Assembly (NCBI RefSeq): GCF_013122565.1
Contig: NZ_CP053258.1
Length of the DNA: 64,000 nt
Source of the DNA: Escherichia coli
GTDB lineage: Bacteria > Pseudomonadota > Gammaproteobacteria > Enterobacterales > Enterobacteriaceae
Strand: one strand, 5' to 3'
The notes under the pieces were generated by a model, which was given only the letters and a program-made list of their open reading frames with translations, did not search any database and had not been told where the DNA came from. Below are positions 9,200 through 37,896 of this stretch, one piece after another (positions within the stretch are counted from its first letter, which is position 1; every line of letters starts with the position of its first letter). The position numbers and the translations under genes were made by a program.

Positions 9200-9245
9200 T
9201 TTGTTATTCCTCTTTAAACCTGTCTGAACCGTTATCAACCGCGCA

Positions 9246-9285: not shown

Positions 9286-9344
9286 CATGCGTTCATGCAC
9301 CACTGGAAGATCTGAATGTCTTCCAGCACACATCGCCTGAAAGA

Positions 9345-9719: not shown

Positions 9720-9822
9720 ATGGTATATTTGCTAACCGTTTCGATTTCATTCATAGAATGAATTGTCAGTTTTGATACGCTAGCGTAGCCTTATAGATCT
9801 AAGGTGTATCAGGAGATAACGG

Positions 9823-18473: not shown

Positions 18474-18487
18474 TTCCTGTTTTATTC

Positions 18488-18513
18488 AATGAGGGTTGCC
18501 CGGCAACCCTCAT
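18488..18513. terminator. bidirectional terminator between convergent yeeX and pduV
   Basis: AATGAGGGTTGCC-GGCAACCCTCATT perfect inverted repeat. Confidence 0.75.
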
Positions 18514-18573
18514 TGCTCATTGATTCTTTTCTGTGTATCACAGTCATCATTCCCATCTGATAACCTATCGAAA

Positions 18574-19017
18574 TTAGCGACAGACATCTTCTGTATGCAG
18601 CAAGGAAAAAAGTTCTGTAACTCCATTGTTATTAACCGCACTGGTTACTAACACGTTCTGCGCTCCAGCTTCCCGTAACCAACATTTCACCAAAGATATT
18701 TGTTCCATGCTGGCTAAATCTGCTTTGGTTACTACTCCAATGACCGGGCGATTCATTGACGAGGTAAAGCCTGGCGAAAAAGGTGACCACGGTGCGTCCG
18801 CATTAAGCACCAGCGCGATAATGTCTGCTTCGCAGGCACTGACCAACAGTGCACTGTAGAGGCTGCGGTTTTCGAGGTATTCGCCTGGTGTATCAATGGT
18901 GGTCGGGGACCAGACGATTGCCTGCGTTTTCTGATAATGAATATTTTCGCCACGCAGACATTGCGTGAGTGACGTTTTTCCGCACTGGCTGGGGCCGATG
19001 AGCATCATACGTTGCAT
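18574..19017 (-). CDS. pduV: EutP/PduV-family small GTPase (microcompartment-associated)
   Basis: 147 aa with P-loop [10 protein letters not shown] and DTPGE motif; final gene of the pdu operon. Confidence 0.9.
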
Positions 19018-19021
19018 AATG

Positions 19022-19372
19022 TCAGGTCCGCGTAATGGGGCAGGCGGTAAAGCGCATCATTTCACCCAGCGTACGGGTAACCTGGCTAAGTGCATATTCA
19101 ATTGCAGAAACATCACCAGTCAGCACTACGGCACCGGTAAAACGATCAAGAAAACCGATCTCTACAGCGCCTGATTTTGTGGCGATATCGCATGCGATGA
19201 TAGATGCTTCGCTGGGGGTAATCGTCAGAATGCCAATAGCAGAAACGGTGTCTGGTAAACCCAATTTCTTAAACAGATCCTTCCCTGGATTGGCGATGAC
19301 ATGTGCCAGCGTGACCTGCTTACCAGGGACATATTCCTGAATCATCCGTTCAGTTGTGTGCTGAGTTGTCAT
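19022..19372 (-). CDS. pduU: microcompartment shell protein PduU (permuted BMC domain)
   Basis: Translation ...[34 protein letters not shown]... matches PduU/EutS type; start taken at the internal Met to give about 116 aa. Confidence 0.88.
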
Positions 19373-19926
19373 TATCCCTCCACCATCTGACGCCACATGG
19401 CTTCATGTGGGCGGGCAATCACCGACCGATAGACCAACAAACCTTTTTCCCCCGCACGCTCGCTGGCGACAGAGACCGCGTTATTAACATCTGAAATATC
19501 GCCAGCAACCACCATGTAGCATTTACCGCCAATGCCAAAAGCCATATGCACGCGAACGAGAATGACATTCGCAGCTTTGACTGCACAATCGGCAGCGTCA
19601 ATGCAGGCGGCGACACTCCAGGTTTCGACTACGCCGACAGCCCGGTGCTGTTCAGCATGGTTAAGTCCGCTGATTGCAGAAAGGATGCTGGGATGAATAT
19701 TCGGCAGGACAAGACTGTCGACCAGCATTTCGCCAGCAAGGGAAGCGCCGCTGTTGATGGCCTGTTGCACCGCGCCCACATCGCCACCGAGCATCAGTAG
19801 AAATTTTCCGGGGCATAGCGTTTTGCTGACCAGTAACTCAACGTTGGCGCTTTTCAGCATGGCATCGCCGGTTTCCATCCCTTTCGCGATACTGCTAAGT
19901 TCTAAAATACCTACCGCTTTCGACAT
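19372..19926 (-). CDS. pduT: microcompartment shell protein PduT (tandem BMC domains, Fe-S)
   Basis: 184 aa, two BMC domains, conserved Cys in LCPGKF. Confidence 0.92.
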
Positions 19927-19928
19927 GG

Positions 19929-21272
19929 TTAACCTCTCACAAGCGTAATCGCGTTTTCTGTCACATCGCTGACCATGCCATCAATGCTGGCATGAATGGG
20001 GGCACCTAATGTGCCGTGTGGAATTTGACCTACACATTGTCCATGAACGACGCGATCGCCTTTTTGTACACACGCAATTGCGCTGGCACCGATGTGTTGG
20101 CGTAACAATAACGTCACTTTTTCGGGCTGAGGCACCTGTTCAGACAATGGCGCATCCTGATACCACGGGGTTAAGCCCAGTCTGGTTACCAGCCGTTTTA
20201 CGGGAATCAGTCGATAATTTGCCATTGGATCTGCAGGATTTAAGGCACCTTCGTAGCGGAGATTTTGTGCGCGTAATTCCTGCTTAAGCAGGCGGTTTAT
20301 GCGCATTGGTGAAATTCCTACCGGACAGGCGATGCTGGCGCAGACGTTGCACTCCGAACAGGTGAGCGCCGTCAGTAACAGTTGTGGCGTAGCGAGCTGT
20401 TGGTAGTTAACCGCACGTACTAATAAATGGGGTGCCAGTTCGTGACCGATTAAATGACGAGGGCAGAGATCGGTACACAAGCGGCATTGCTCACAAACAG
20501 TTTTCGCGACGGCAAGTACGCTGCGGTCATTCTGCATTCGACGTTGGATCAGTGAATGAGAGTTGGGTAAAACCAGCAAGCCGCCAGTGGTTTTGCTGAC
20601 TGGTGTGTCGAGCGATGTGATCAAACTTCCCATCGTCGGCCCGCCATTGATAAAACCAGGAGCATCTACTGTTGCGCCGCCCGCCAGCGCCAGGACTTCA
20701 CGTAAAGACATGCCGATGGGGACGGTTACCGTTATTGGTTTCGCCACTGCACCATTAACGGTGAGTGTGCGGCGCGTCACTGGATACTGTTGCTCGACGG
20801 CTCTGGCAATATTAAGTACGGTTTGAACATTATTGACCACCACACCGACGCTAACGGGTAATGCAGCGGGTGGAACGCGGCGACCAGTTGCCATCCAGAT
20901 GGTCAGCACTTCGTCTCCTGCGGGGTAAACGTCGGGCAAAATATGCAGGCGGATATCCGGTGGTAACAGTGGTGTGAGTGCGTTTATTGCCAGTTGATAT
21001 TTCTCTTTCAGCGCGATGATTCCGCTACTGGCCCCGGTGGCTTTCATCGCATAGTGAACACCGCGAAGCAGGCGGCTGGCTTGCTGCGCCATTAACTGTT
21101 GATCCACTTTCAACATGGGTTCGCATTCCGCCGCATTCACCAGGAAAGTGTCAACACGCGCTTGTAGCTTAATATGGGTTGGAAAACCTGCGCCGCCAGC
21201 ACCCACGACACCTGCTGCCTGTACTCGCTCGCGGATAGTCTGGTCGTCGCAGGAGGTTAATCCGACGTTCAT
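19929..21272 (-). CDS. pduS: cobalamin reductase PduS (RnfC-like Fe-S flavoprotein)
   Basis: 447 aa; two 4Fe-4S motifs [12 protein letters not shown] and [28 protein letters not shown]-binding region. Confidence 0.93.
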
Positions 21273-22381
21273 AACAATTCCTCGAGCAGTTCTGCAATCG
21301 CGGAGGCATCAGCCGCATGCGGGTTGGTACGCAACGTTGCATCCGCCAGCGCCGCCTGAACCATATCTGGTATGCGTATTGACCATTCTGCTTTTTTTTC
21401 TTTCAGCGCATTGGCAAGAGTCGGCAGCGTACAGGTTGTTTTAAGCTGTTCAATATGTTGAATAAGTGCATTCAGGCTGGCGGTGTCATTGGCGTTGTCC
21501 GGGCATAAATGGCACGTTTTCGCCAGCCGGGCGTAGCGTTTGGCTGCGCGCGGATCGCCAGCATTAAAGCGGATAACCGCCGTGAGCAGGAGCGCATTCG
21601 CCAGGCCGTGCGGCAGATGAAACTGTCCGCCGAGTTGATGAGCAATTGCATGGTTTAAACCGAGTCCGGCCTGGCTAAAGGCCACTCCTGCAAGCGTCGA
21701 AGCATTATGCATTTTGCCACGGGTGGCAAGACAATCGCCTTTCTTCACTGCAGTGGGCAGGTATTGAAAAACAATTTGCACGGCTTTTTCGACCAGTGCA
21801 TCCGTGAAGTCGCTGGCGCGGGGAGAAACATAAGCTTCAAGCGCATGGGTTAAAACATCCATCCCGGTATTGGCCGTTATCGCCGGTGGCACGCTGACGA
21901 CCAGAGATGGATCAAGGATCGCGATATCCGGATAAAGTGCATTATCGAAAAGGGGATATTTAATCCCTTTCTCAGGATCGCTGATGACACAAGCACTGGT
22001 CACTTCGGAACCGGTACCGCTGGTGGTAGGAATGGCTACGCAGGTTTCAATTTCAATGCCACACTGGCGACCGAACCAGACAATCGCTTTTGCGGCGTCC
22101 AGGGCAGAACCGCCGCCAAAACCGATAACCACATCCGGGCGTAAAGTCTGCATTTGCGCAATGCCTTTCACCACGATCTGGATAGTTGGGTCAGGCGTTA
22201 TTTCGCTAAAAATACTGAGACGATTACTGTCGGGCAGCGCCTGATGCAACGTGTCAATGAGTGGTGAGCGTGCCAGAAAGGCGTCGCAAATAATCCAGAT
22301 GTGTTTATGAGAGAAACGGCTAAGTACCTTGAGACTTCCCGGTCCGCTGTATAAACGCGTCTGCAGTGAAAAAGTATTCAT
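21269..22381 (-). CDS. pduQ: 1-propanol dehydrogenase (iron-containing alcohol dehydrogenase)
   Basis: 370 aa Fe-ADH family (GGGSALDAAK motif). Confidence 0.93.
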   Translation of the reverse strand: MNTFSLQTRLYSGPGSLKVLSRFSHKHIWIICDAFLARSPLIDTLHQALPDSNRLSIFSEITPDPTIQIVVKGIAQMQTLRPDVVIGFGGGSALDAAKAIVWFGRQCGIEIETCVAIPTTSGTGSEVTSACVISDPEKGIKYPLFDNALYPDIAILDPSLVVSVPPAITANTGMDVLTHALEAYVSPRASDFTDALVEKAVQIVFQYLPTAVKKGDCLATRGKMHNASTLAGVAFSQAGLGLNHAIAHQLGGQFHLPHGLANALLLTAVIRFNAGDPRAAKRYARLAKTCHLCPDNANDTASLNALIQHIEQLKTTCTLPTLANALKEKKAEWSIRIPDMVQAALADATLRTNPHAADASAIAELLEELL

Positions 22382-22391
22382 TTCCGTTTCT

Positions 22392-23777
22392 CTAGCGAAT
22401 TGAAAAGCCGCTGGTTAACACGCAGCGTCGTGAGCGGGCAAAAGTCCGTGCTGACGTTGTCCCTTCTCCGGTCGGTGTTGCAATGGTAAAGGTCGTAAAG
22501 CCTTCGCCGCCGACGCCAATACCCGCCCAGGAGGGGCCGTTTTTGACAAAGATTGAGGTTTGCATAACGCGCGCAGCAAGGTTGAGCCGTGAGACGTTCT
22601 GCGAGTGCATAATTGCCGTGTGGTGCAAGCCGTCTTCCACTTTCAACGCCAGAGTGAGAGCGCTGTCAAAATCGTTGACCTTCACAATGGGCAGCATTGG
22701 CATCAGTTGTTCACAAGTAACCCAACTATCATCGGCGTCAACAACAGCAATCAGTAGGCGCGGCGCTTTTGCGGGCAAAGGGAGGCCCGCTGCTCCCAGC
22801 AAGGCTGATGGGCTTTTCCCAACCAGTTTTTTGTTGGTGCTACCGTCTGGCAGGCAAATTGCACGCAATTTCTCCGTTTGTTCACGGTTAAGAAGAAGTG
22901 CGCCAAAGCTTTGCATCTGCTGAATTAAATAATCTGCCACTGATGCCACGACAATCAGGCTTTTTTCAGCGATACACGGCAGGTTGTAATCAAAAGAAGC
23001 GCCGTTGATGATGTCCTCGGCGGCTTTCACAATATCAGCCGTTTCATCGACGATACACGGAGGGTTACCCGCTCCGGCACCAATCACTTTCTTGCCACTT
23101 TTCATTCCCATGGTGACGATCCCCGGACCGCCGGTAATCGCCAGAACGCTGATTTTAGGGTGCGCCATCATCTGTTCGGTGGCAGCAAAGGTCGGTTCAG
23201 ATACGGTAACGATCAGGTTATGAATGCCACTACAGCGAAACGCGATGTCTTCGATTGTGGTAATCAGTTTTAACGAAACGTATTTGGCTCCCGGGTGTGG
23301 ACTGAAGTAGACGCTATTACCTGCTGCCAGCATGCTGATGCTGTTGTTAATGATGGTTTCCGTGGGGTTGGTGCTTGGCGTGACCGAGCCAATAACCCCA
23401 AACGGAGAGTACTCAAACAAAACCATGCCACCATCACCGGTTAGTGCTGTGGTGGTTAAATCTTCAATTCCTGGCGTGTTATCAAGTGCCGCTTTGTTTT
23501 TTAGGTACTTATCTTCTTTATTTCCCATCCCCGTTTCTTTGGCGCTTTCTTCTGCCAGTTCGGTAAGGCGGGGCATTAATTCTTCGCGAATGGCGCTGAT
23601 AATGGCGCTACGGGTTTTAAGCGGGCACTGTTGAAAGCGTAAAAAGGCCTGGTGTGCTGCGCAGACCGCTTCATCGACAGTCTGGAAAATAGCGTTTCTT
23701 TGCGTTCGTGGTGTAGCGGGGACAAGTTGCTCACGCAGAATAATGCGGATCAGTGTTTCTAATTCAGAGTTATTCAT
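22392..23777 (-). CDS. pduP: CoA-acylating propionaldehyde dehydrogenase
   Basis: 461 aa aldehyde dehydrogenase family with N-terminal encapsulation-like helix (MNNSELETLIRIILREQL). Confidence 0.93.
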   Translation of the reverse strand: MNNSELETLIRIILREQLVPATPRTQRNAIFQTVDEAVCAAHQAFLRFQQCPLKTRSAIISAIREELMPRLTELAEESAKETGMGNKEDKYLKNKAALDNTPGIEDLTTTALTGDGGMVLFEYSPFGVIGSVTPSTNPTETIINNSISMLAAGNSVYFSPHPGAKYVSLKLITTIEDIAFRCSGIHNLIVTVSEPTFAATEQMMAHPKISVLAITGGPGIVTMGMKSGKKVIGAGAGNPPCIVDETADIVKAAEDIINGASFDYNLPCIAEKSLIVVASVADYLIQQMQSFGALLLNREQTEKLRAICLPDGSTNKKLVGKSPSALLGAAGLPLPAKAPRLLIAVVDADDSWVTCEQLMPMLPIVKVNDFDSALTLALKVEDGLHHTAIMHSQNVSRLNLAARVMQTSIFVKNGPSWAGIGVGGEGFTTFTIATPTGEGTTSARTFARSRRCVLTSGFSIR

Positions 23778-24781
23778 TGGTTTACTCCCACGTTAATTGC
23801 CGCCATTGCGCTTTGGGCAATATCCATGTCTTGTTCAACGCTACCGCCGCTGATGCCAAGCCCGCCAAGCAATTTTCCGTCACGCCAGAGGGGGAAGCCG
23901 CCACCAAAAGTGACGACTTTTCCTTGCATATGGCTTTCGAGCCCGTAAAGCGGCGCGCCGGGTTGCACGGTATCAGCAAGCTTGTGGGTTGCCGTTTTCA
24001 TCGCCACGGCGGTCCAGGCTTTTTTCGGTGCCAGTTCACTGCTGACCAACAGGGCATCAGGCATCCGCCAGGTAACACTTTCTGTTCCGTTGGCATCAAC
24101 AATGCTGATGACAACGGGAATATGCAGTTCATCTGCGCGCATTGCCGCACTACGAATGAGTTGGTGAAGATCCTGAAAAGTGAGCGGCATTGTGCGTTCC
24201 TTCATTGCTGGTGTGTGGTTGGCTTCGTGATAACGTTTTGTGATTTCCTGAATTATCAGATTTTGATGAGCAACGTTGTCTTCCACGCGGGCGAGGGCAT
24301 ACAGGCAATCGGAAAGTCGGTTGATATAGTGCAGCAAAACATTCCGGACGGTGGTTTCCGTTGTCAGTTCAACCAGCCGTCTTTCAGCCCGTCGAGCCAC
24401 CGTGCGGGCGAAATGCATGCGGCTTGCGGCTTCACATCGACCAGGCAGAATGAAGCTGTGAACTGGGGGGACGGCGTTCATTGCACTATCGATCGCGTTT
24501 TCCAGCACGGCAATTTCTTCCGTACCGACGTAACGCTGCTGCGCTGACGGCTGTTCGCTTTCACTGGCGAGTTCGGCGCTAAACCAAAATATCTGTTGTT
24601 GAATGGCTTCCAGTAAGATGCGATGGCTTTCAATGGAGGTGGCGCAATAACACAGACTAAGTGTCGCGTTCAGTTCATCCAGCGTGCCATAGGTTTCGAC
24701 ACGTAGATGAGTTTTGCTTACGCGCTGTCCGGTAAATAAAGACGTACTTCCTGAATCACCTGTTCGGGTATAAATTGCCAT
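23774..24781 (-). CDS. pduO: ATP:cob(I)alamin adenosyltransferase PduO (plus C-terminal DUF336 domain)
   Basis: 335 aa; N-terminal MAIYTRTGDSGSTSLFTGQRVSK is the PduO-type adenosyltransferase signature. Confidence 0.93.
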   Translation of the reverse strand: MAIYTRTGDSGSTSLFTGQRVSKTHLRVETYGTLDELNATLSLCYCATSIESHRILLEAIQQQIFWFSAELASESEQPSAQQRYVGTEEIAVLENAIDSAMNAVPPVHSFILPGRCEAASRMHFARTVARRAERRLVELTTETTVRNVLLHYINRLSDCLYALARVEDNVAHQNLIIQEITKRYHEANHTPAMKERTMPLTFQDLHQLIRSAAMRADELHIPVVISIVDANGTESVTWRMPDALLVSSELAPKKAWTAVAMKTATHKLADTVQPGAPLYGLESHMQGKVVTFGGGFPLWRDGKLLGGLGISGGSVEQDMDIAQSAMAAINVGVNQ

Positions 24782-24792
24782 CTTTCAGCTCC

Positions 24793-25068
24793 TTAGCGCG
24801 AAAGCGTATCGACAATGCCGACCACTGCCAGGTCGATGGCCTCGTTAGGGCCGGAAAACACATGTCTGGCGCTGGAACCACTGCTGAGGAGTACCAACTC
24901 ACCAACGCCTGCGCCGACTGAATCAACGGCAACTTCGTCGCCGGTTAAAGGCGTGAGAGGCAGTTCGCCGTCAGCACTGACCCGGCGAACCAGCAGTAGT
25001 TTTTTCCCGATCAGAGAAGGTGATTTTTGCGTGGATACTACCGCGCCAGTGACTCGAGCCAGATGCAT
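24793..25068 (-). CDS. pduN: microcompartment vertex (pentamer) protein PduN
   Basis: 91 aa EutN/CcmL family ([15 protein letters not shown]...). Confidence 0.9.
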
Positions 25069-25071
25069 AGG

Positions 25072-25563
25072 TTACTCCTGCCTGATTAACTGAATATTTC
25101 GGGTAATTGCCGCTTCACGAGCCAGTGCGGTCACACAACATTTCCGCTGTAACACCAGTATTCCAGAGCTTAACTGCGCAATATCGGCATAACTTAAAAG
25201 TCGATCACGATGAAGGTAGATCGGTTGCCCTTGCTCGTCGCACCAGCTTAGCGGTAGACGGGCGAGAGTCTTCAATTCAATGGCGTTCAGGAAATGATGC
25301 TGCAACGACAATTGAATGTGCATTCCCCAGGCTAACGCTTCGTGTATCTGGATTGCTGCTCGATCTGACGTTTCGTTCTCCGCAAGTTGTCGCAGCAGCG
25401 GCAGATCGACATATCGGATTTGTAATGACGCATACTGATGAACGCTCTCTTGAACGCTGGCGTCTCGCAGTTGAAAAACAGTCAGCACGAGTGTTTTTCC
25501 CGCACGTTGTTTAAGGCGAAAAACCACTTCGTCAACAATACGTTGCATCAGCATGTTATTCAT
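25072..25563 (-). CDS. pduM: microcompartment structural protein PduM
   Basis: 163 aa; position between pduL and pduN; PduM-like. Confidence 0.85.
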   Translation of the reverse strand: MNNMLMQRIVDEVVFRLKQRAGKTLVLTVFQLRDASVQESVHQYASLQIRYVDLPLLRQLAENETSDRAAIQIHEALAWGMHIQLSLQHHFLNAIELKTLARLPLSWCDEQGQPIYLHRDRLLSYADIAQLSSGILVLQRKCCVTALAREAAITRNIQLIRQE

Positions 25564-26192
25564 GGCACTGACACCAGTGTGGCAAAAACGTCAGGGCTAT
25601 CAGCGCCTGCGGCGTTGGCCTCATCGGTATCAATATGCATTTCAAGACGCATATCCGGAGAGACGCGAACAGCGACGTTTTCGAATATCAGTCGTCGCTC
25701 ATCACCTTCAATGGAAACCGCCACTTTATCGCCATGCGTAACGCCATAAATCAGGGCATCCAGCGGAGACATATGAATATGCCGTTGCGCGACAATAACG
25801 CCAGATGTGATCTCCAGTTCCGCAAATGGGCTTATCAAACGAATCCCCGGAGTGCCGCTGAGATCGCCTGACATGCGTAGCGGGGCGGTGATCCCTAACG
25901 TTCTGGCGTCCGTACGGGAAATTTCCACCTGGCTTGCATTGCGTAGCGGCCCCAACAAGCGAACGTTGTGCAATTTACCTTTTGGTCCCTCCAACGTAAC
26001 AACCTGTTCAGCCGCGAATTGGCCAGGCTGCATTAACGGCTTTTTCTCGCTAATCGGTTGTTCAGGAAAAAGACGCAAATAATCCGCTGTTGAAAGATGA
26101 ATATGACGACTGGAAACACCCAGAGGGATAGGGCGCTCGCGCATCTCATCCAGAATCTGACTCACTGTTTCCTGCAAGGTTTGTTTATCCAC
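25560..26192 (-). CDS. pduL: phosphate propanoyltransferase PduL
   Basis: 210 aa PduL/EutD-type phosphotransacylase. Confidence 0.9.
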   Translation of the reverse strand: MDKQTLQETVSQILDEMRERPIPLGVSSRHIHLSTADYLRLFPEQPISEKKPLMQPGQFAAEQVVTLEGPKGKLHNVRLLGPLRNASQVEISRTDARTLGITAPLRMSGDLSGTPGIRLISPFAELEITSGVIVAQRHIHMSPLDALIYGVTHGDKVAVSIEGDERRLIFENVAVRVSPDMRLEMHIDTDEANAAGADSPDVFATLVSVP

Positions 26193-26194
26193 TG

Positions 26195-26617
26195 CTACTC
26201 CCCTCGCTTATTGGCGTGCAGGCAAAGTGAGCGGGGCTCGCCTTTTTGCCGCTGACATGCCGGGTCAAGACACAAATTACAACTGATAATCTCTGAGGTG
26301 ACGGTTGTTGCTGGTGTTTCGCTTGTTTCAACCGTCACAGTCAATGCTTCAGTTGTGTGGGGCAGGATGCCCTCTCCCGGGCGGGCAATCACTTTGTGTG
26401 CGACAAGGCCATTTCGCTGTCCGGCGAAACTGGCTCCCGTCGCGATCGCCGCATTAACCGAGGCGACGTCACCGTTGATTTTGATGAGCGTCCAGCCTGA
26501 GCCATTGGTCTTCTCAAGGCCAACCAGCGTGATGGACGCGGCTTTTGCCATAGCGTCTGCGCAACTGATGGCGAGTGCCAGACCACTGACTTCAAGTAAT
26601 CCCAGTGATTGCTTCAC
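26195..26617 (-). CDS. pduK: microcompartment shell protein PduK (BMC domain plus Cys-rich C-terminal tail)
   Basis: N-terminal BMC domain (LGLLEVSGLALAISCADAMAKAA) and C-terminal tail with C-x2-C-x4-C...C. Confidence 0.88.
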   Translation of the reverse strand: MKQSLGLLEVSGLALAISCADAMAKAASITLVGLEKTNGSGWTLIKINGDVASVNAAIATGASFAGQRNGLVAHKVIARPGEGILPHTTEALTVTVETSETPATTVTSEIISCNLCLDPACQRQKGEPRSLCLHANKRGE

Positions 26618-26640
26618 GCTGTGCTCCTTAGCAAATGGGG

Positions 26641-26916
26641 TTATGCCGATTTAGGTAAAATAGCCTCAACATCACTGTGTGGACGCGGGATGACATGGCA
26701 GGATTTCACTTCGCCAACGGCGCTTGCCGCAGCGCTACCCGCATCAACGGCGGCCTTTACTGCGCCAACATCACCGCGGACCATAACCGTAATCAGACCC
26801 GAACCAATCTTTTCATAGCCAACCAGCTGCACGTTGGCGGATTTAACCATGGCATCTGCAGCTTCAATTGCGCCAACTAACCCTTTTGTTTCAACCAGTC
26901 CTAGTGCGTTGTTCAT
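26641..26916 (-). CDS. pduJ: microcompartment shell protein PduJ (BMC hexamer)
   Basis: 91 aa, close paralogue of PduA ([29 protein letters not shown]...). Confidence 0.93.
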
Positions 26917-26935
26917 ACAGCGTTTCTCCTGTGGA

Positions 26936-27286
26936 TTATGAGTGGCATTCCCTGAAGGGAATGCCTTTTACCAGGCGGGCAGCGTTATTGCCGATGCTGC
27001 GCCGGGCATGGTTATCTTGTTGATACATCAGCGTAAACAGTGGCGCTGATGCCGGTAAGTTTTTGTAATGCACAATCAGCTTTTCCCGGTCGCAGGCTAT
27101 GCCAACCAACAGGGGGGACTGACGAGCAGCCTGCCAGGCGCTATCGATGACTTCACCTGACGGGATATGTTGAATGCGAAAGGGGATGCCTTCCTCTTCA
27201 ATGCCAAGAAGCACCTCATTCCATGTACTGATACAGTCACCTATTTCCGTAACGACAATAGCGGGCGTATGTTCTTTACTTTCCAT
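26936..27286 (-). CDS. pduH: diol dehydratase reactivase small subunit
   Basis: 116 aa; follows pduG; overlapping start/stop. Confidence 0.9.
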
Positions 27287-29108
27287 GAGCCAACTCCCTG
27301 TGCCAGGAAATCAGTAGCCCGGTAGCTACCGCATTGCGCGGGCCTTCACTACCACGGATATTCCCCCGTCCGGCGACCAATCGATAATGCGCCAATGCAT
27401 CGGTGACTAACTGCGGGACTTCGAAATCCAGGGAAGAACCGCCCACCAGAACGACGAACGGAATATCGCGAATATTTCCGCCTGGACTTACCTGACGTAG
27501 CGCGCGCAGGGCATTGGTTACGAAGACGCGCTCTTTCGCACTGCGGCGAACAGCGCGTACTTTTTCCAGTGTTAAATCGCCGGGAATAGGCACCAGTTCG
27601 TCAGGTTTCACCACACAAACGCGGGCAAATACATGAGGGGACAGCGGAGTAGGGAAGAACTGAACGCTGCCGTCTTCATGGCGTAAATGGAACAGGCTTT
27701 CTACTTTTGCCAACGGGTATTTTTTGATTTCTTCTGCCAGATAACGATCATTTAAGCCCAGTTCCCTGGCAATAATCATCGTCACCATGTCGCCCGCTCC
27801 CGCAAGGTGAGTAGCTATCATTTCCCCTTTCTGATTGATGATGGAGGCATCGGTAGAGCCTGCACCTAAGTCCAGAATAGCCAGTGGACGTGTGGTTCCA
27901 GGGGTAGTCAAGGCCCCCTGAATGGCGGCTTCTGCTTCTGCGCCTCCGACCTGAACATCAACATGCAGTTTTTGCTTAATTTCACTGGCGATCATCGCCA
28001 TTTGCAGACGGTCGGATTTCACCATAGAGGCAATACCCACAGCCTGTTCCAGTGAAAATTCACCTGCCAGACCACCGGTTACGCTGACGGGGACAGAGGT
28101 ATCTATCGCCAGCAAATCCTGAATAAAAATTTCGTGGCTGGGTTTATTGGTCAGCTCCGCCATGGTCTGGCGAACATGTTCCAGCATACCGCCGATGTTG
28201 GTGCCTGGTTCTCCCGTCACGTTTTCCAGTTTTGGGCACTCACCGACCGCTTTCATAATGGCATCGGCACCAGCAGCTACATCAACGCGCGTTGTGCGCC
28301 CGGCAGAAAGCAGTTCGATATTTCCGGCGGGTATCGAACGGGCTTTAACGTCGCCAGAAGGCGTTTTCACTACCACTGCTGAACGGTTGCCGATTAGCGC
28401 CCGCGCGACAGGAACAATATTTTTAGTCTCTTCAGCATTGAGGGCGAAAACGGTGGCAATCCCATACGGGTTAGACAGGGTTTCGATAACTTTCCCGGGA
28501 ACGGCAACTTCAATTGCAGCCAGCATGCCGAGCGGAATACGATCGATGTAGAGGACTTCATCGACAATAGGTAGAGGAATTTCCAGACGGTTATTGACCA
28601 GTACGCCATCGTCGCGTTGCAGAATAACGCCAGTTAGCTGATATCCGGCGCGTACGGAGGCGTTCATCATCGTCGCGATATCGGCAAAATCAAATGCCGA
28701 TGACACCACCAGGATGTAAGGTGTGTCCGCCGGGCGTGTTAATAACTCTTGCGGAGTGATGGTGAGCCCTACGCCCAGCCCCACTCCGCCCGGAGTTTTC
28801 GGGTTGTGACCGATCATGGTTGATTCGGTGATGATAGTTTCAGTGATGGTTTCCATCGCCACATCACCAATGACCGGAGTTGCTTCGTTGATACGAATAA
28901 GCGAAATATCGCTAACATTGATGCCGACTTTTTTCGTTGCCTGTGCGAGCGCCTTCTGAATACCATGGACGTTACGCAACGTACCTTTGATTCCGGTGGT
29001 TTCCGCCAGGGCGCTACTCACGAACGATAACTCTCCAGATGCACTGAGCGTTGCCAGCGCTACCTCTGTCGATGAGTTGCCGATATCAATGCCTGCTATA
29101 TATCGCAT
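27276..29108 (-). CDS. pduG: diol dehydratase reactivase large subunit
   Basis: 610 aa, ATPase of the DhaF/PduG family (MRYIAGIDIGNSSTEVALA). Confidence 0.93.
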   Translation of the reverse strand: MRYIAGIDIGNSSTEVALATLSASGELSFVSSALAETTGIKGTLRNVHGIQKALAQATKKVGINVSDISLIRINEATPVIGDVAMETITETIITESTMIGHNPKTPGGVGLGVGLTITPQELLTRPADTPYILVVSSAFDFADIATMMNASVRAGYQLTGVILQRDDGVLVNNRLEIPLPIVDEVLYIDRIPLGMLAAIEVAVPGKVIETLSNPYGIATVFALNAEETKNIVPVARALIGNRSAVVVKTPSGDVKARSIPAGNIELLSAGRTTRVDVAAGADAIMKAVGECPKLENVTGEPGTNIGGMLEHVRQTMAELTNKPSHEIFIQDLLAIDTSVPVSVTGGLAGEFSLEQAVGIASMVKSDRLQMAMIASEIKQKLHVDVQVGGAEAEAAIQGALTTPGTTRPLAILDLGAGSTDASIINQKGEMIATHLAGAGDMVTMIIARELGLNDRYLAEEIKKYPLAKVESLFHLRHEDGSVQFFPTPLSPHVFARVCVVKPDELVPIPGDLTLEKVRAVRRSAKERVFVTNALRALRQVSPGGNIRDIPFVVLVGGSSLDFEVPQLVTDALAHYRLVAGRGNIRGSEGPRNAVATGLLISWHRELAHGK

Positions 29109-29117
29109 AGTTCGTCC

Positions 29118-29636
29118 TTAATCGTCGCCTTTCAGTTTTTTGCGCTCGACATAAAGTTCCGCAGCTTCACGGACAAATGCAGCACAAATTTGGGCCTGAT
29201 AACGCCGTTCAAGATCGTCAGCAATGGCAATAAGTTCTTGCTTAGTTGAACGATAAGGGCGTAACGCATTGTAGATTTCGAGGATGCGATCATCCGGTAC
29301 TGAGGTAAGCTCAGCGGCGCGTTCAAAATTCATCGCCAGACGATCGCGACCAGCATCTCTGGCAATCGCGGCCTGAATACGCAATGTTTCAGGGGTAATG
29401 CGCATATCCTGGGCGGTGACGTTATCGCTTAGCACATTTTCCAGAGTGAAATCGTCGAGCGTTTTATTGGTTGCTGTTTTAACCCATTCCGGATGTTTAT
29501 TTGCCAGCGGATAATCCGTCACTTTGGCGCTCTGTATTGACGCGCTGGGGACCGCAGAAACAGGAGCTGCATCCTGTAAACTGTTCATGCGGTTCAACAC
29601 GTCCCTGACCATCGACTCAATTGCATCGGTATTCAT
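29118..29636 (-). CDS. pduE: propanediol dehydratase small (gamma) subunit
   Basis: 172 aa; order C-D-E conserved. Confidence 0.93.
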   Translation of the reverse strand: MNTDAIESMVRDVLNRMNSLQDAAPVSAVPSASIQSAKVTDYPLANKHPEWVKTATNKTLDDFTLENVLSDNVTAQDMRITPETLRIQAAIARDAGRDRLAMNFERAAELTSVPDDRILEIYNALRPYRSTKQELIAIADDLERRYQAQICAAFVREAAELYVERKKLKGDD

Positions 29637-29650
29637 GAAGGTTTCCTTTG

Positions 29651-30319
29651 TTAAAACGTCACGCGCAGTTCTTGCGGTTTTTTGCCAGTGACCACGTACT
29701 TCGTCTCTTTAATATGCAAAATGGCAGATTTGGCTTGGTATTTCGGCCGCGCCATTTGATCGTTGAGGGTCGGCACTGGTTGTGGAGACTCACGCTTCGC
29801 ATAACGCGCGGCGTTTTTGCCAATCTGACGATAAGTATCCAGCGTCAACAAAGGCGCTTGTGGGAAAAGTTCCAGGTTAGACAAGGGAGGAAGCCCCTGC
29901 TGGTGGATAACCGTTGTGCCTTTCGACTGAATACCGATAGCAATACCTGAACCACTAAGACGATCGCCTTCGACTGCTACGAATGCGACATCGGACGATT
30001 TAAAGCAGCGAATCACACGGGCTTTAATACCTTCTTCTTCGATACCGGCAATTACTTCGCGCAAGATGTTTTTATGCGGAATACCGATGATATTGACGGT
30101 TTGCGCCAGGCCGAACGCCGGTCCTACAGCAATAATGACTTCATCTTGCTGAGTGCCTTGTTGGGCTTCGCCAATTTCGGTCAGAAAATTTCCGGTATCT
30201 GGCGCGAAAGAGGCAGTTGCAGAGACAGGTGCGCGAAATGAAACGGACTTGTCGCTGGTTTGCATTTCTGCCAGCACGTCTTCGATAATCTGACGCAGTA
30301 ATTTTTCGTTAATTTCCAT
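29651..30319 (-). CDS. pduD: propanediol dehydratase medium (beta) subunit
   Basis: 222 aa; N-terminal encapsulation helix ([19 protein letters not shown]). Confidence 0.93.
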
Positions 30320-30328
30320 TTCTCACCC

Positions 30329-31993
30329 TTAGTCAATTTCGTTGGGATCAAGTGCACCGGGAATATTTTTGATCTCTTCCCAGCGTTCCCCTTGCAGGCG
30401 GTAACCTGTAGCCGGTCCGGCGTAATCATTGACGTCATTGACCGCAGAGAGCACTTGTCCGTCATCGACGATGATGGCTGAGGTATGGAGATAATCGCCG
30501 GTCAGTTTTGCTTTTTGCATGTTGAGCATGTCCTGGGCGACATCGGTAAAACCGCCTTGCGCCAGGGCTTTCACCACTTCCAGGCTGTTACGGTTTTTAT
30601 TGATAATTTCCTGGGCGAACTTAATGTCTTCTACGATGTTGCGCTCTGGCATATCTTTCGAACCGTGGGCATAGGTCGCCGCTTCGACTTCTTCATCGGT
30701 AATAGGCGGTAGCCCCATACCGGCAAAGACAGCCTGTAAAGCGCGAGCGGCTTTATTGCGGATAGCGATAACATCTTCTTCGCGTACTGGTCGCAGCCCG
30801 CCATCAACCTTCAGGTCACGCTGAATGACGTTGTAATCATCGAAGTCTTCAGCATCTTCGTTTGAACCAGCAAACATGTTGTCGTAGTTCGGCACAGCGG
30901 AAAAACCGGAAGAGATAAAGTCGGTACCAGGCAGAAACTGCATCAGGAAACGTGCGGTACGGCGCATATCCGAGTGGGTAAAGGTCTGGTCATTACTGGA
31001 GGCGCATTCCAGATCCAGCGATGAGCAAATTAAGTTTTCCGCTAATACTGCGCGGATGCCTGATGGCACAGCTGATGGAACACCGATGCAGCTTACCGAA
31101 CCATTCTGCAGGCCCTGAACGCCTGCGGCTTTGGTGATGTAAATGCAACGAGCCTCGAGATAAAGCATTGATTTGCCTTCCGCGTAACCCATCTGTACTT
31201 CAGAGCCGGAGCCGGAAGTAAAGCGCATTTTTAAGCCGCGAGACGCATAGGATGACGCGAGAAATCCTTTTGACCACGGGGTGTCATCGCCATCGGTGAA
31301 AACAGGTTCTGTACCATAGACAGAAATTGTTTCGGCGTAACAGGTGTGGCCTAACATACCGAGTTTCAGTTCGGTGGCTTCTTCCAGTGAACACTGGGTC
31401 AAGACGCCCGGACGTCCCACCTGTGAGCCGACCAGCAGGGCGATGGCGTTGAACGGGGCATAGCGAGCAACGGCAACGGTGGTTTCCTGTTCATCAAACC
31501 CGCGCCATGCGCCTTCAGCTGCGTCGGCGGCAATTTGTACCGGGTTATCTTTGACGTTGGTGACGTGAGCCTGTTGTGATGGTGTTCGACGGGCGCGCAT
31601 TTTCTGCATCGCCATCATCATCTCTACCACGTTCATCTGCGAAACAACTTCGACGATTTTTGCAGGCGTCATTGCTGTGGTAAGGGGAACGATATCGCTA
31701 CGTTTGACATTTGGATCGCACAACATATTGGCAAGTTTTACCGAATCCATCGCGATGACTTCTTCTGCGCGCGCGAGATTGATGCCGTAGCGGGCGATAA
31801 AGTGGTCGATCAGGTCAAACTGGCTGGCGGGTTTTCCATCCAGTTCGGTAACGACGCTGTTAACAATTTTGATTGACGGTTTAGGATCGTTCGGGCTTTC
31901 CATCGCAATGAAGCCTTCTTCAATCCACTCTTTAACGAAACCGTCCTGGTTGACCGGGCGTTTTGCCAGTGCTTCAAATCTTTTCGATCTCAT
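30329..31993 (-). CDS. pduC: B12-dependent propanediol dehydratase large (alpha) subunit
   Basis: 554 aa; diol/glycerol dehydratase large subunit family. Confidence 0.95.
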   Translation of the reverse strand: MRSKRFEALAKRPVNQDGFVKEWIEEGFIAMESPNDPKPSIKIVNSVVTELDGKPASQFDLIDHFIARYGINLARAEEVIAMDSVKLANMLCDPNVKRSDIVPLTTAMTPAKIVEVVSQMNVVEMMMAMQKMRARRTPSQQAHVTNVKDNPVQIAADAAEGAWRGFDEQETTVAVARYAPFNAIALLVGSQVGRPGVLTQCSLEEATELKLGMLGHTCYAETISVYGTEPVFTDGDDTPWSKGFLASSYASRGLKMRFTSGSGSEVQMGYAEGKSMLYLEARCIYITKAAGVQGLQNGSVSCIGVPSAVPSGIRAVLAENLICSSLDLECASSNDQTFTHSDMRRTARFLMQFLPGTDFISSGFSAVPNYDNMFAGSNEDAEDFDDYNVIQRDLKVDGGLRPVREEDVIAIRNKAARALQAVFAGMGLPPITDEEVEAATYAHGSKDMPERNIVEDIKFAQEIINKNRNSLEVVKALAQGGFTDVAQDMLNMQKAKLTGDYLHTSAIIVDDGQVLSAVNDVNDYAGPATGYRLQGERWEEIKNIPGALDPNEID

Positions 31994-32011
31994 AAATCTG
32001 CCTCAGAGAAT

Positions 32012-32824
32012 TCAGATGTAGGAAGGGCGATCGTTTTTCGGTGTATCGCCAAGAGTCGAAAGCACGGTTTTACCGATTTCGCGTGCGGAGATGACCGCCT
32101 GGCGGACTGCGCCGGAGTCACCCGAGATAATCAGAATGACTTCATTGCTGTAGCTGGTGCCTTGAGCGGGGGAGCTGTATGCCACAACATCCACATTGGC
32201 GGACTTCAGCGCGGTGTCGGCCATCAGAACACCCACAGCAGCCGGAGCGCCGACAATAACGCCGCAAGCCCGTCCCAATGGTGCACCAAACGCTTTTTCC
32301 AGTGCATAGCTGGCGCGGGCGGTATATTGCAGCTCAAGATGTCCGGCTTCGTTGGCATAGACATCGCCAAAGGTCCGATCGAGTTCTTTCAGGGCGACTT
32401 CAATACCGCGTTTCACGTCGGAAACATCGTTGCCACCTAAGAGGATCAATGAGCCATGCCCGGCACCGCCTTTAGTATCGCGAGGAAGTTCAATGCTAAT
32501 AACTTCAGTGTTGGTGGCTTTTACCGCTTCATCAGCGGCCATAATGTGTGGCCCTGCGCCAATACGCGCACCCAGAATGCCAATGGAACGATAGCGTTTT
32601 TCAAGTTTCATCGCGTCCAACAGGGCGCTATCAACGTTCGCAATGACCAGACCTACAGTGTCGCCAATAGCGGTGCCAACAAATTCTGTTAACGTGCAGC
32701 TTTTTTCTGCCATAGCCGTCTCTCGTATTTGATGAGTGGTTTTCGGGAGAACCTCATGCTCTGGCGTCGCTACGCGAGCGATGACCTGCGCCATGATCTG
32801 TTCGACCAGTTCATTGCTGCTCAT
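32012..32824 (-). CDS. pduB: microcompartment shell protein PduB (tandem BMC)
   Basis: 270 aa; tandem BMC domains. Confidence 0.93.
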
Positions 32825-33105
32825 GGGTTAATTCCCTTTGGTAAGATTTTTTCGACATCGGTATGTGGTCGGGGAATAACGTGTACGGCTTTTACTTCGC
32901 CGACGTTACGCGCAGCTGCGGCACCTGCGTCTGTTGCCGCTTTTACCGCCCCGACATCACCACGAACGATGACGGTCACCAGCCCGGAACCTATTTTTTC
33001 GTAGCCGACCAGCAAAACATTTGCTGACTTCACCATGGCGTCTGCGGCCTCTATGGCGGCAGTTAAGCCTTTGGTTTCTACCATTCCTAACGCTTCTTGT
33101 TGCAT
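32821..33105 (-). CDS. pduA: microcompartment shell protein PduA (BMC hexamer)
   Basis: 94 aa [30 protein letters not shown]...; first gene of the operon. Confidence 0.95.
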
Positions 33106-33617
33106 AAAGACCTCGTCTGGATTTTTTTGACGATATGACTATAAAAAAAAGCGAGGAAAAAGAATGGCTGACTTAATCGGCTAATGAGAAAAATTAATAG
33201 AGGGCAAATATTATAAAATTGCTTTTATGAACTATATGTTGTTAATTTATTAGTTGTTTTGTGGATATTTCAATGTGAATTAATTGCGTTGGCTGAGGAG
33301 GTTAATCGCGGATAAAATTTCGTTGGGTTTGGTTCGCGGAAGGGAATTGTGATATTTGTTTAAATTTTATTATATCATGATGACAATTTTTTATTGTAAA
33401 AGCTTGGCGGTAATTATTACTTTCAACACTGATTAACGCTGTGTTGCATGATTCTGCAATGACAATAATTTGTTATCTTAGCACGATTTTTACACGAGTC
33501 TGTCATGCATGTTGGCAATATTTTCTGCAGAGCAATTTTTTATAGTTGCGCTCGGTATACACAACAATCAGCGCATAGTTGGCTGATAAAGAAAAACTCC
33601 GTAAAGAAGGTGTCACT
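33106..33617. promoter_or_regulatory. AT-rich divergent control region between pduA and pduF (pdu and pduF-pocR promoters, presumed PocR sites)
   Basis: 512 bp non-coding, strongly AT-rich, separating the divergently transcribed pduA and pduF; individual promoter elements not resolved. Confidence 0.6.
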
Positions 33618-34427
33618 ATGAATGATTCACTCAAGGCGCAATGCGTTGCCGAGTTTTTGGGCACTGGACTGTTCCTCTTTTTTGGCATTGGTTGTTTGTG
33701 CGCCCTGAAAGTTGCCGGGGCAAGTCTGGGACTGTGGGAAATTTGTATCATTTGGGGGTTAGGGATTTCGCTTGCTGTTTACCTTACGGCAGGTATTTCC
33801 GGCGCTCATCTTAACCCGGCTGTTACCATTGCTCTGTGGCTGTTTGCCTCTTTCCCAGCCCGTAAAGTGCTGCCATTTTGTGTGGCGCAATTAGCGGGTG
33901 CCTTTGGTGGTGCGGTTCTGGCATATTCTCTATACAGCAATTTGTTTATCGATTTTGAATCTGCTCACAATATGGTGCGTGGTAGTGCAGAAAGTTTACA
34001 ACTCGCCAGTATCTTCAGTACTTATCCGGCAGCGGCGATTAATGTATGGCAAGCTGCGTTGGTCGAAGTGGTCATAACGTCCATGTTAATGGGGTTGATT
34101 ATGGCGTTGACCGATGACGGTAATGGCGTACCCAAAGGACCGCTTGCGCCTTTACTTATTGGTATTCTGGTTGCTGTTATTGGTGCTTCTACCGGACCAT
34201 TAACCGGTTTTGCCATGAATCCAGCGCGTGATTTTGGACCTAAGATTTTCACCTGGCTTGCGGGGTGGGGGGAAATTGCGATGACTGGTGGACGCAATAT
34301 TCCTTATTTCATTGTACCCATTATTGCACCGATCATTGGGGCATGTGTTGGTGCGGCGATTTATCGCTATCTCATTGCAAAGAATTTACCTGTCAATAGT
34401 GTAACGCCTAAAGAAATTAGCGAATAA
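33618..34427 (+). CDS. pduF: propanediol diffusion facilitator (aquaporin/GlpF family)
   Basis: Translation MNDSLKAQCVAEFLGTGLFLFFG... with two NPA motifs (HLNPAVT and NPARD). Confidence 0.93.
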   Translation: MNDSLKAQCVAEFLGTGLFLFFGIGCLCALKVAGASLGLWEICIIWGLGISLAVYLTAGISGAHLNPAVTIALWLFASFPARKVLPFCVAQLAGAFGGAVLAYSLYSNLFIDFESAHNMVRGSAESLQLASIFSTYPAAAINVWQAALVEVVITSMLMGLIMALTDDGNGVPKGPLAPLLIGILVAVIGASTGPLTGFAMNPARDFGPKIFTWLAGWGEIAMTGGRNIPYFIVPIIAPIIGACVGAAIYRYLIAKNLPVNSVTPKEISE

Positions 34428-34629
34428 CGAAATACTCTGGCAGTTATAAACGTTTATTTTTTTACTGTTTGTGATCTGCTTTCCGAACTTATTAAAAAGT
34501 CTCCCGCTTCACGGAGGCTTTTGTTATTGTCCTTTGTGCTTCTCGTCAGTAAATCATCAGGGATGATGTGAAGATTAAATGTAAAACAATTGTTTTGCTA
34601 TAACAATAAATTAACTGGGAGGTTTTATC

Positions 34630-35544
34630 ATGATTTCTGCGGCGACACTTAATTCAGAACTCATTAATAAAATCGCGCAGGATTTTGCGCAGGCGACCAG
34701 CCTTGCGGTTGTCGTGGTCAATATTCACGGCGATGAAATTTCCGAGCTGTTTAACTTCACTCCATTTTGTCAGATGATGCGGCAACACCCTCAGCTAAGC
34801 ACTCGATGTCGCATGAGTGATCGTTGTGGGGGCCTGGAAGCCTCTAAGTCCGATCAGCCTTGTATTTATCGCTGTCATGCCGGATTAACCGATTTCTCTA
34901 TTCCTCTGGTAATCGCCGGACATTTAGTTGGTTTTGTATTGTGCGGGCAAGTTCGTCTGCGTAATGATGATGTCGATTTGGTTGATATTCTGAATGTCGA
35001 TGATTGCTGGCAGGCAGATCCCGAATTACTTAATGAATTCCGCAAAGTCCCTGAGATGGATTACTCAAGAGTTATGGCCTCTGCTGATTTGTTGAAGTTG
35101 ATTGTGGAAAATTGCCTCAAAAAACAACTCAATTTTGTGGTTATTAAAGAAAACAAATCTCAGTCAGATTCGGTGCGCCAGACTCGTGCGCCTAATCCCC
35201 ACGACAATAAAATGAAAAAAGCTTTACGCTATATTGATGCACATTTATCAGACGATTTGCGTCTGGAGGATGTCGCCTCACATGTTTACCTAAGCCCTTA
35301 TTATTTCAGTAAGTTATTTAAGAAATACCATGGAATCGGGTTTAATGCGTGGGTAAACCAACAACGGATGGCCAGCGCTCGTGAGTTACTGTGCCATAGC
35401 GACTGGAGCATCGCCAGCATTGCGCGTAATTTAGGTTTTTCCCAAACCAGTTATTTTTGCAAAGTTTTCCGTCAGACTTATCAGGTTACGCCGCAGGTGT
35501 ATCGGCAGCAAGTGAATGAAAATGCGGCGATGGAAATGGTATAG
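34630..35544 (+). CDS. pocR: AraC-family regulator of pdu/cob (PocR)
   Basis: 304 aa; N-terminal PocR sensory domain and C-terminal AraC-type HTH. Confidence 0.93.
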   Translation: MISAATLNSELINKIAQDFAQATSLAVVVVNIHGDEISELFNFTPFCQMMRQHPQLSTRCRMSDRCGGLEASKSDQPCIYRCHAGLTDFSIPLVIAGHLVGFVLCGQVRLRNDDVDLVDILNVDDCWQADPELLNEFRKVPEMDYSRVMASADLLKLIVENCLKKQLNFVVIKENKSQSDSVRQTRAPNPHDNKMKKALRYIDAHLSDDLRLEDVASHVYLSPYYFSKLFKKYHGIGFNAWVNQQRMASARELLCHSDWSIASIARNLGFSQTSYFCKVFRQTYQVTPQVYRQQVNENAAMEMV

Positions 35545-35654
35545 AGTAAATGCCCCAAAAAAAGAGGACGGTTTAAATAAACTCTGGAATGAATAATTAA
35601 CGTTATTTACCTGTTATGGGAAAAGTAAAATCAGCTCATAACATACGCTGACAG

Positions 35655-37885: not shown

Positions 37886-37896
37886 AGAGACGTGAC

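Follow-up and report, generated by a model that had tools for sequence, protein, structure and literature searches.

A pdu microcompartment locus ending at pduV in Escherichia coli, very probably the native Escherichia version at its ancestral chromosomal site

The pdu operons of Salmonella enterica LT2 and Citrobacter extend from pduA to pduX and are accompanied by a divergent pduF-pocR pair. Their last two genes are pduW, coding for a propionate kinase, and pduX, coding for an L-threonine kinase. In Salmonella, PduW and PduX are cytosolic proteins located outside the microcompartment and are not structural components of it, PduX serving B12 synthesis as L-threonine kinase (PMC7181861), and AckA of the same organism phosphorylates propionate (PMC3475010). 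In E. coli, the pdu operon is already well studied as an accessory trait, in AIEC, in ExPEC ST372 and in pangenome studies. No PduW counterpart was identifiable in E. coli (PMC3475010), TdcD is the sole PduW homologue found in an E. coli isolate carrying a pduL homologue (PMC7360682), and our literature search found no AIEC or UPEC paper containing pduW. The locus reported here is an ordinary one, correct as observed and already known: public annotation lists its genes, and the lack of a PduW counterpart has been published, leaving little discovery value.

The E. coli DNA analyzed here (64,000 nucleotides of contig NZ_CP053258.1, hereafter the window) carries at positions 18574-35544 an intact pduABCDEGHJKLMNOPQSTUV operon on the minus strand and the divergent pduF-pocR pair, flanked in E. 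coli backbone by yeeX/tmaR on one side and cobU on the other. With a probability of about 0.9, we take this to be the form of the pdu microcompartment locus native to Escherichia, still standing at the ancestral position that yeeX/tmaR and the cob genes delimit. Gene identities were assigned with curated NCBIfam models and with RefSeq names from the homologous locus of E. coli 13KWH46, and they bear out the complete operon and divergent pair that a first-pass annotation had recognized in the ORFs. PduB, PduC, PduD, PduE, PduG, PduL, PduM, PduP and PduV score above the curated NCBIfam cut-offs, the remaining shell proteins match BMC or EutN/CcmL-type models, and PduO and PduS match the expected families. 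Since their lengths and order equal those in the RefSeq annotation of the 98.2%-identical 13KWH46 locus, all 21 genes (19 operon genes, pduF and pocR) are judged intact, and they are free of frameshifts. The arrangement is of the Escherichia type, reading tmaR, pduV to pduA, pduF, pocR, riboswitch, CbiG stub and cobU, with a pduV-yeeX spacer of ~100 bp.

All components of a Pdu-type system are found along the minus strand. The operon starts with the shell protein genes pduA and pduB (32012..33105; PduB matches NF011944 with 474 bits, PduA matches BMC models), followed by the signature enzyme, the B12-dependent diol dehydratase PduCDE (29118..31993; NF011979, NF011616 and NF011971 with 1070, 392 and 357 bits, respectively), and by the large and small subunits of its reactivase, PduG and PduH (26936..29108; TIGR04491 with 961 bits for PduG, RefSeq name for PduH). 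Three classes of shell proteins are represented. The hexameric BMC class comprises PduA, PduJ (26641..26916; BMC models and RefSeq name), PduK (26195..26644; 149 residues from the RefSeq start, BMC-domain matches and RefSeq coordinates) and PduU (19022..19372; 116 residues from the RefSeq start, EutS/PduU-type model NF012012 with 134 bits). PduB and PduT (19372..19926; TIGR02526, E = 3e-46, and RefSeq name) are tandem-BMC proteins, and PduN (24793..25068; CcmL/EutN models) is the pentameric vertex protein of the EutN/CcmL family. The core aldehyde-processing set consists of the CoA-acylating propionaldehyde dehydrogenase PduP (22392..23777; NF011927, 713 bits), the phosphotransacylase PduL, a phosphate propanoyltransferase (25560..26192; NF011652, 256 bits), and the Fe-dependent 1-propanol dehydrogenase PduQ (21269..22381; Fe-ADH family matches and RefSeq name). 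Besides the reactivase, cofactor maintenance is covered by the two-domain corrinoid adenosyltransferase PduO (23774..24781; TIGR00636, 161 bits) and by PduS, an RnfC-like Fe-S flavoprotein and cobalamin reductase (19929..21272; TIGR01945, 253 bits). PduM (25072..25563; NF011957, 247 bits) and the EutP/PduV GTPase-like protein PduV, the last of the operon with 147 residues (18574..19017; TIGR02528, 187 bits for a cut-off of 138), complete the series. On the plus strand, pduF encodes the MIP-family propanediol facilitator (33618..34427; TIGR00861, 225 bits, and RefSeq), and pocR the AraC-family regulator (34630..35544; RefSeq name in the homologous locus), whose E. albertii orthologue exhibits the PF10114 PocR and HTH_AraC domains. 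The overlaps suggestive of translational coupling seen at first pass are real, and seven start/stop overlaps were confirmed (pduA/B, pduG/H, pduJ/K, pduL/M, pduO/P, pduQ/S and pduT/U).

The closest relatives of the locus are those of other pdu-positive E. coli strains. In 13KWH46 (NZ_CP019250), E24377A (NC_009801) and AIEC LF82, the genes have exactly the order and lengths seen in the window, and the flanks are the same too, with tmaR and the 100-bp pduV/yeeX spacer at one end, and the riboswitch, the CbiG stub and cobUST at the other. The alignment suggested at first pass shows 18.6 kb to be collinear, with pduV as the end, at 98.2% nucleotide identity, the difference being allelic divergence of ~1.8% only, and the published LF82 gene table likewise stops at pduV (PMC6379400). 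Compared with the Salmonella enterica LT2/Citrobacter operon, a comparison drawn from the literature for Salmonella and from sequence for Citrobacter, the window shares the 19 operon genes, their order and divergent pduF-pocR. PduQ, PduS, PduT, PduU and PduV retain 65-93% protein identity across Enterobacteriaceae loci. Citrobacter also presents the same chromosomal neighbourhood with a convergent yeeX, but pduW and pduX (~2.2 kb) lie in between, whereas the window is devoid of both. PduV of the window is slightly shorter and has a different C-terminus (147 residues, against 150 in the Salmonella/Citrobacter type), and in place of the adjacent cbi-cob operon of these organisms, cbi is reduced to a 145-residue CbiG-like ORF.

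The absence of pduW and pduX after pduV, first read from the ORFs, stands in the whole 64-kb window. Searches with tblastn using the Citrobacter PduW and PduX proteins report no homologue or remnant of either (best E = 1.4 and 2.5, respectively), blastn with the corresponding genes returns chance-level matches only, and a nhmmer profile agrees. Beyond the window, Citrobacter-type pduW-pduX DNA is absent from the native site in all complete E. coli genomes, and 5,425 of the 5,426 contain no pduW/pduX DNA anywhere; apart from brief matches to tdcD, the species-wide search gave a single hit, a foreign pdu island flanked by IS elements in strain 48. At the same place in C. braakii, the pduV-yeeX gap encodes a 404-residue acetate/propionate kinase (NF009063, 837 bits, cut-off 659) and a 288-residue GHMP kinase (PF00288, E = 3e-12). 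The gap measures 2.2-3.1 kb in 25 loci outside Escherichia (from Citrobacter, Pseudocitrobacter, Intestinirhabdus, Phytobacter, Kosakonia and one Raoultella MAG), in all of which yeeX is convergent, against 108-116 bp in E69, the GTDB representative of E. coli, and in E. albertii and E. whittamii. The operon terminated by pduV is therefore the normal Escherichia form and not a strain oddity.

The junction itself keeps the trace of a replacement. In the window, exactly 100 bp separate the pduV stop (18574) from the end of yeeX (18144..18473, plus strand, convergent with the operon; RefSeq annotation of the homologous locus), whose protein shows 92-100% identity among Escherichia, Citrobacter, Phytobacter and others. 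A nhmmer profile built from 20 Citrobacter-type pduV-to-yeeX regions, together with a junction alignment of three species, delineates a segment of ~65 nt (18522..18586, minus strand) that replaces ~2.17 kb of the Citrobacter-type loci, namely the last ~22 nt of pduV and the whole of pduW and pduX. This segment contains the last four codons and the stop of the Escherichia pduV, and the alignment indicates that it is common to E. coli, E. albertii and E. whittamii. The window offers nothing to align with profile positions 432-2599, and within the spacer the profile search supports no more than the final few codons of pduX and a hairpin. This hairpin (18487..18515, between yeeX and pduV), with a 13-bp stem and a 3-nt loop (RNA folds z = -3.9 and -4.7), aligns in nhmmer with the one that follows pduX in Citrobacter. 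The spacer of about 100 bp and its hairpin thus hold as first described, but the stem is not followed by a U-tract on either strand and a scan for consensus intrinsic terminators makes no call there, leaving the bidirectional terminator presumed and unproven. The Escherichia ancestor would have lost ~2.2 kb with pduW and pduX and kept the hairpin located downstream of pduX, the deletion endpoints being placed to within the 65-nt junction. Parsimony and the retained hairpin point to a probable loss in Escherichia rather than a gain elsewhere, and the pduV-ending form would descend, through deletion, from a pduA-X/cbi arrangement like that of Citrobacter, occupying the same place in the chromosome. 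As for residual pduW/pduX in the 100-bp spacer, pairwise local matches of 16-25 nt fall in different places in different species, and the resemblance of an ATGTCT stretch to the beginning of pduW extends over only 6-7 nt and calls for a frame shift, too little to carry weight.

Of 5,426 complete E. coli genomes, 637 (~12%, about one in eight) contain these 18.6 kb with unchanged gene order, the best match to the window in this set, which excludes the window's own strain, being 98.2% identical. Presence in so few genomes may evoke a genomic island acquired recently at the position that CP4-44 occupies in K-12 and already truncated after pduV. Such a reading agrees with the prophage remnant that occupies the K-12 interval and with the multiple gains and losses inferred in ST372, where repeated pdu acquisition in that lineage has been argued (PMC9997745). 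However, pduV, full or partial, lies next to yeeX in 5,407 of the 5,426 genomes, and the sampled pdu-less genomes, K-12 included, share the same ~183-bp pduV stub with the same breakpoint, indicating that pdu was there first. The locus moreover occupies the same site in the same orientation relative to yeeX in Citrobacter and five other genera, its borders show no integrase, tRNA or IS in either the window or the annotated homologue, its GC content (50-54%) is backbone-like, and at 98.2% it is about as close to the best-matching E. coli sequences as the flanks are (97.7% and 98.1%). Recent acquisition is thus improbable. The ST372 picture would fit a regain of pdu by recombination with other E. 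coli, and vertical descent of pdu in the window's own strain is thereby only presumed. Regarding K-12 MG1655, IS5H and CP4-44/flu were found between cobU and tmaR, as the first-pass annotation had stated. The flanking genes and the yeeX/pduV spacer with its hairpin are kept, and DNA alignment identifies a ~183-bp 3' end of pduV, which lies within yoeF/yoeD, together with ~330 bp of the sequence preceding cobU. In contrast, IS5H and the CP4-44 remnant (flu, yeeR-W) stand in place of all that runs from the pduV interior through the CbiG stub. Because sampled pdu-less genomes including K-12 keep the pduV stub, the K-12 condition with CP4-44 is derived, its interval being a later replacement that still contains the stub; most E. 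coli would have lost the pdu genes later and been left with it. A literature search found no paper in which yoeF appears together with pduV.

A decaying, non-functional remnant, unable to support propanediol catabolism without pduW, pduX and cbi, might also be imagined, given that two operon genes and the entire cbi operon are gone and that the rest of pdu is lost in most E. coli. This is less credible still than a recent island, and we regard it as very unlikely. The 21 genes are full length, with lengths identical to those in hundreds of genomes, and dN/dS between E. coli and E. albertii amounts to 0.00-0.06 (pduA-D, pduF and pocR), from which we conclude that the locus is maintained. The two missing enzymes belong to the cytosol in Salmonella, E. 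coli CUMT8 fails to grow on 1,2-propanediol once pduC is deleted (PMC9220930), and in LF82 induction extends to the entire operon (PMC6379400). The native locus of the window would encode everything located in or on the microcompartment and do without the two cytosolic accessory enzymes of the Salmonella/Citrobacter operon end. Microcompartments and B12-dependent growth on 1,2-propanediol are predicted here from the genes, the growth evidence coming from other E. coli strains. Propionyl-phosphate made by PduL may be converted to propionate and ATP by a housekeeping kinase, as initially proposed; this need is plausible and finds an echo in the literature (PMC7360682, PMC3475010), the kinase in E. 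coli being plausibly AckA or TdcD, neither of which is encoded in the 64-kb window. Alternatively, propionyl-CoA may enter the methylcitrate cycle.

The other flank is reduced as well. The yeeX-to-cobU interval was correctly delimited at first pass, but the locus does not abut cobU: 1,055 bp separate pocR from cobU, containing a cobalamin riboswitch (35636..35810, plus strand; Rfam RF00174, 107.7 bits, E = 1.6e-26), the leader of the former cbi/cob operon, and an ORF of 145 residues resembling the N-terminus of CbiG (36029..36466, plus strand; NF004463, E = 3.8e-19, profile positions 1-125 out of 351). The adjacent cbi operon is absent downstream of pocR in the window, where only these two elements precede cobU, cobS and cobT (36600..38976, plus strand; RefSeq annotation of the homologous locus), which serve nucleotide-loop assembly and corrinoid salvage. 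In E. albertii too, only the CbiG stub is present where the cbi operon would sit, whereas contigs with the exact C. braakii PduD sequence display cbiA-B-C-D after pocR. The Escherichia lineage that lost pduW and pduX would also have lost the cbi operon and, with it, de novo corrin synthesis, so that the locus would need cobalamin or cobinamide taken up from outside, with CobUST, PduO and PduS processing it. It is an even bet that Escherichia pdu is a distinct, selectively kept, salvage-only variant, in which pduX was lost with cbi and pduW was left to housekeeping kinases, and that, given the almost universal pduV stub and its one common breakpoint, the absence of pdu from ~88% of E. coli reflects a single ancient deletion instead of a repeatedly acquired island. 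The status of the pduV-ending form and of the K-12 interval bears on the use of pduC as an AIEC marker, on models of propionate and ATP yield from propanediol in E. coli, and on the reading of pdu presence as horizontal acquisition. The riboswitch-controlled CbiG N-terminal ORF may have a putative retained function. Homologues of the stub are restricted to Escherichia and Shigella. Across Escherichia species, the ORF is kept open at 144-145 residues.

The genes pduA, B, C, D, E, G, H, J, K, L, M, N, O, P, Q, S, T, U, and V form an unbroken run on the minus strand, from position 33105 down to 18574, and the divergent plus-strand genes pduF, encoding a MIP channel, and pocR come next after the operon. 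Identities were assigned from the ORF listing and from NCBIfam model scans, with scores far above the curated cut-offs for PduC (1070 bits), PduG (961 bits), PduP (713 bits), PduB (474 bits), PduD (392 bits), PduE (357 bits), PduL (256 bits), PduM (247 bits), and PduV (187 bits). The full pduA-pduV operon with divergent pduF-pocR proposed by the first-pass annotation thus agrees with ORFs and scores alike, and the overlapping stops and starts that it reported are found as 4-bp and 11-bp overlaps, both in the ORFs and in the homologous RefSeq locus. Between pduF and pocR, antisense to the direction of both genes, minus-strand positions 34486-34569 match the enterobacterial Rfam sRNA STnc230 (74.8 bits, gathering score 50).

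The entire window consists of E. coli backbone in the order his operon, plaP, sbcB, dacD, sbmC, yeeA, yeeX, pdu, cobUST, ldtA, nac, cbl, yeeO, and amn, and its identity to complete E. coli genomes is 97-98%. The 18.6-kb pdu interval is covered to at least 80% in 637 of the 5,426 complete E. coli genomes, the top matches reaching 98.2% identity over 100% of the query. In the RefSeq annotation of E. coli 13KWH46, gene lengths and order are the same as in the window (tmaR, that is yeeX, PduV through PduA, pduF, pocR, a cobalamin riboswitch, a 145-residue hypothetical protein, and cobU), and the operon likewise terminates at pduV beside tmaR. On this basis, all 21 pdu genes of the window are intact and the pduV-terminal architecture is the standard E. 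coli form. The E. coli pdu operon is a known accessory trait (PMC9997745, PMC9220930, PMC6379400), and the LF82 gene table also ends at pduV (PMC6379400). The initial observation of an operon ending at pduV is therefore accurate and its interpretation sound, and the locus is a normal, already described Escherichia pdu locus; what is added is a modest comparative picture, comprising a pduWX deletion that left the downstream hairpin in place, the parallel loss of cbi, and a near-universal pduV stub. Neither the pdu interval nor either flank has a full-length match above ~98% in any of the 5,426 complete genomes, and the lineage of the window is therefore unrepresented among them.

As to the junction itself, yeeX ends at 18473 and pduV at 18574, leaving a spacer of exactly 100 bp where about 100 bp had been estimated. 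The spacer contains a perfect hairpin (18487-18515; 13-bp stem, 3-nt loop) that prevails in the predicted fold of both strands (z = -3.9 and -4.7). Of the bidirectional terminator initially proposed, the hairpin on both strands thus stands; since neither strand has a U-tract after it and it was not called by the consensus terminator scan, it is best described as a putative terminator.

A PduS scan with one genome per species yielded 40 loci, onto all of which the window proteins were mapped. In 25 of them, from Citrobacter, Pseudocitrobacter, Intestinirhabdus, Phytobacter, Kosakonia, and one Raoultella MAG, the convergent yeeX lies 2.2-3.1 kb past pduV; the E. coli representative, E. whittamii, and E. 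albertii have 108-116 bp at this place. The C. braakii gap holds a 404-residue ORF that has a 16-nt overlap with the pduV stop and is identified as PduW because it passes the acetate/propionate kinase equivalog cut-off (837 versus 659 bits), together with a 288-residue GHMP-family kinase consistent with PduX. The absence of pduW and pduX noted at first reading holds: tblastn with both C. braakii proteins found no homologue in the 64-kb window, and a profile built from the pduV-to-yeeX regions of 20 Citrobacter-type loci gives two aligned blocks in the window, with the segment between them missing. The first block covers pduV until ~22 nt short of its stop, while the second comprises the extreme end of pduX with its hairpin and continues through yeeX; ~65 nt of the window stand in for ~2,168 profile columns, and the breakpoints are localised to within this ~65-nt junction. 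The three species E. coli, E. whittamii, and E. albertii are collinear here, which suggests a single old deletion in the genus Escherichia or a deleted allele that spread within it. Since E. coli and E. albertii both lack pduW/pduX at the same junction, the loss most likely predates their split.

When Citrobacter pduW-pduX DNA was searched against all 5,426 complete E. coli genomes, no such pair came up, the sole substantial match being a pduW-like gene in E. coli strain 48. This strain, alone among the 5,426 genomes in having such a gene, carries a second, foreign pdu island, flanked by IS66/IS21, at a separate chromosomal place (NZ_CP166879.1, 5244959-5274121), in the order pduV, pduW-like kinase, then IS66 and IS21 fragments. 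Two pdu contigs, one of E. coli type and one of Citrobacter type, occur in the MAG 'Citrobacter sp.' HRGM_Genome_0066; proteins of the former are 96-99% identical to those of the window, and it is probably mis-binned E. coli. In Phytobacter diazotrophicus, pduW and pduX have an additional gene between them, for a uroporphyrinogen-III methyltransferase of the cobA / cysG C-terminal type (306 bits; locus L028, 13886-14629), which fits the operon tail being a B12-synthesis module; gaps are similarly widened in further Phytobacter loci and in Kosakonia sp. S29.

In K-12, the cobU-tmaR interval contains IS5H and CP4-44 (flu, yeeR-W), as stated at first reading. Alignment indicates that K-12 keeps the yeeX/pduV spacer including the hairpin, the final ~183 bp of pduV within yoeF/yoeD, and ~330 bp upstream of cobU. 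This pduV stub (window 18574-18756) is retained beside yeeX in pdu-less E. coli: pduV is matched in 5,407 of the 5,426 complete genomes, at full length in 644, and in an evenly spaced sample of the others nearly every genome has this stub of ~183 bp. Such near-universality implies that the pdu locus is ancestral at the yeeX-cobU site, that K-12 represents a derived state, and that the common pdu-less state arose through deletion or replacement. The K-12 'CP4-44' pseudogenes yoeF/yoeD overlap the stub.

Regarding function, dN/dS values of 0.00-0.06 between the window and E. albertii for pduA, B, C, D, pduF, pocR, and cobS indicate strong purifying selection on the pdu genes since the two species diverged. 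Deletion of pduC in E. coli CUMT8 abolishes growth on 1,2-propanediol (PMC9220930). Salmonella PduW and PduX are cytosolic, outside the microcompartment (PMC7181861), and no E. coli counterpart of PduW could be identified (PMC3475010). AckA or TdcD is a reasonable candidate replacement, an idea already current, because Salmonella AckA, reported as 98% identical to the E. coli enzyme, uses propionate (with a catalytic efficiency about one-tenth of that for acetate; PMC3475010) and TdcD is the sole PduW homologue found, 44% identical, in a Crohn's isolate with a pduL homologue (PMC7360682).

On the cob side, a cobalamin riboswitch (35636-35810, 107.7 bits) lies between pocR and cobU, followed before cobU by an ORF (36029-36466) whose 145-residue product covers only the first ~125 of 351 CbiG model positions (E = 3.8e-19). 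Its homologues are short proteins of 144-145 residues from Escherichia and Shigella, and E. albertii has the same stub between pocR and cobS. The reading frame is open at 144-145 residues in E. coli, E. albertii, and E. marmotae. Between the window and E. albertii, the stub has a dN/dS of 0.36, against 0.00-0.06 in neighbouring genes, which suggests either slow decay or weak constraint. In contrast, cbiA, cbiB, cbiC, and cbiD directly follow pocR on contigs whose PduD is exactly that of C. braakii. Escherichia is thus devoid of the cbi operon by loss, as it is of pduX. As PduX is described as an L-threonine kinase that supplies the synthesis of coenzyme B12 (PMC7181861, citing Fan and Bobik 2008), a joint loss would be coherent. 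In one E. albertii locus (L044), cobU persists only as two fragments (8435-9877, 64-67% identity), cobT is missing, and ldtA directly follows cobS; this species has apparently lost corrinoid salvage too, and its pdu genes are intact.
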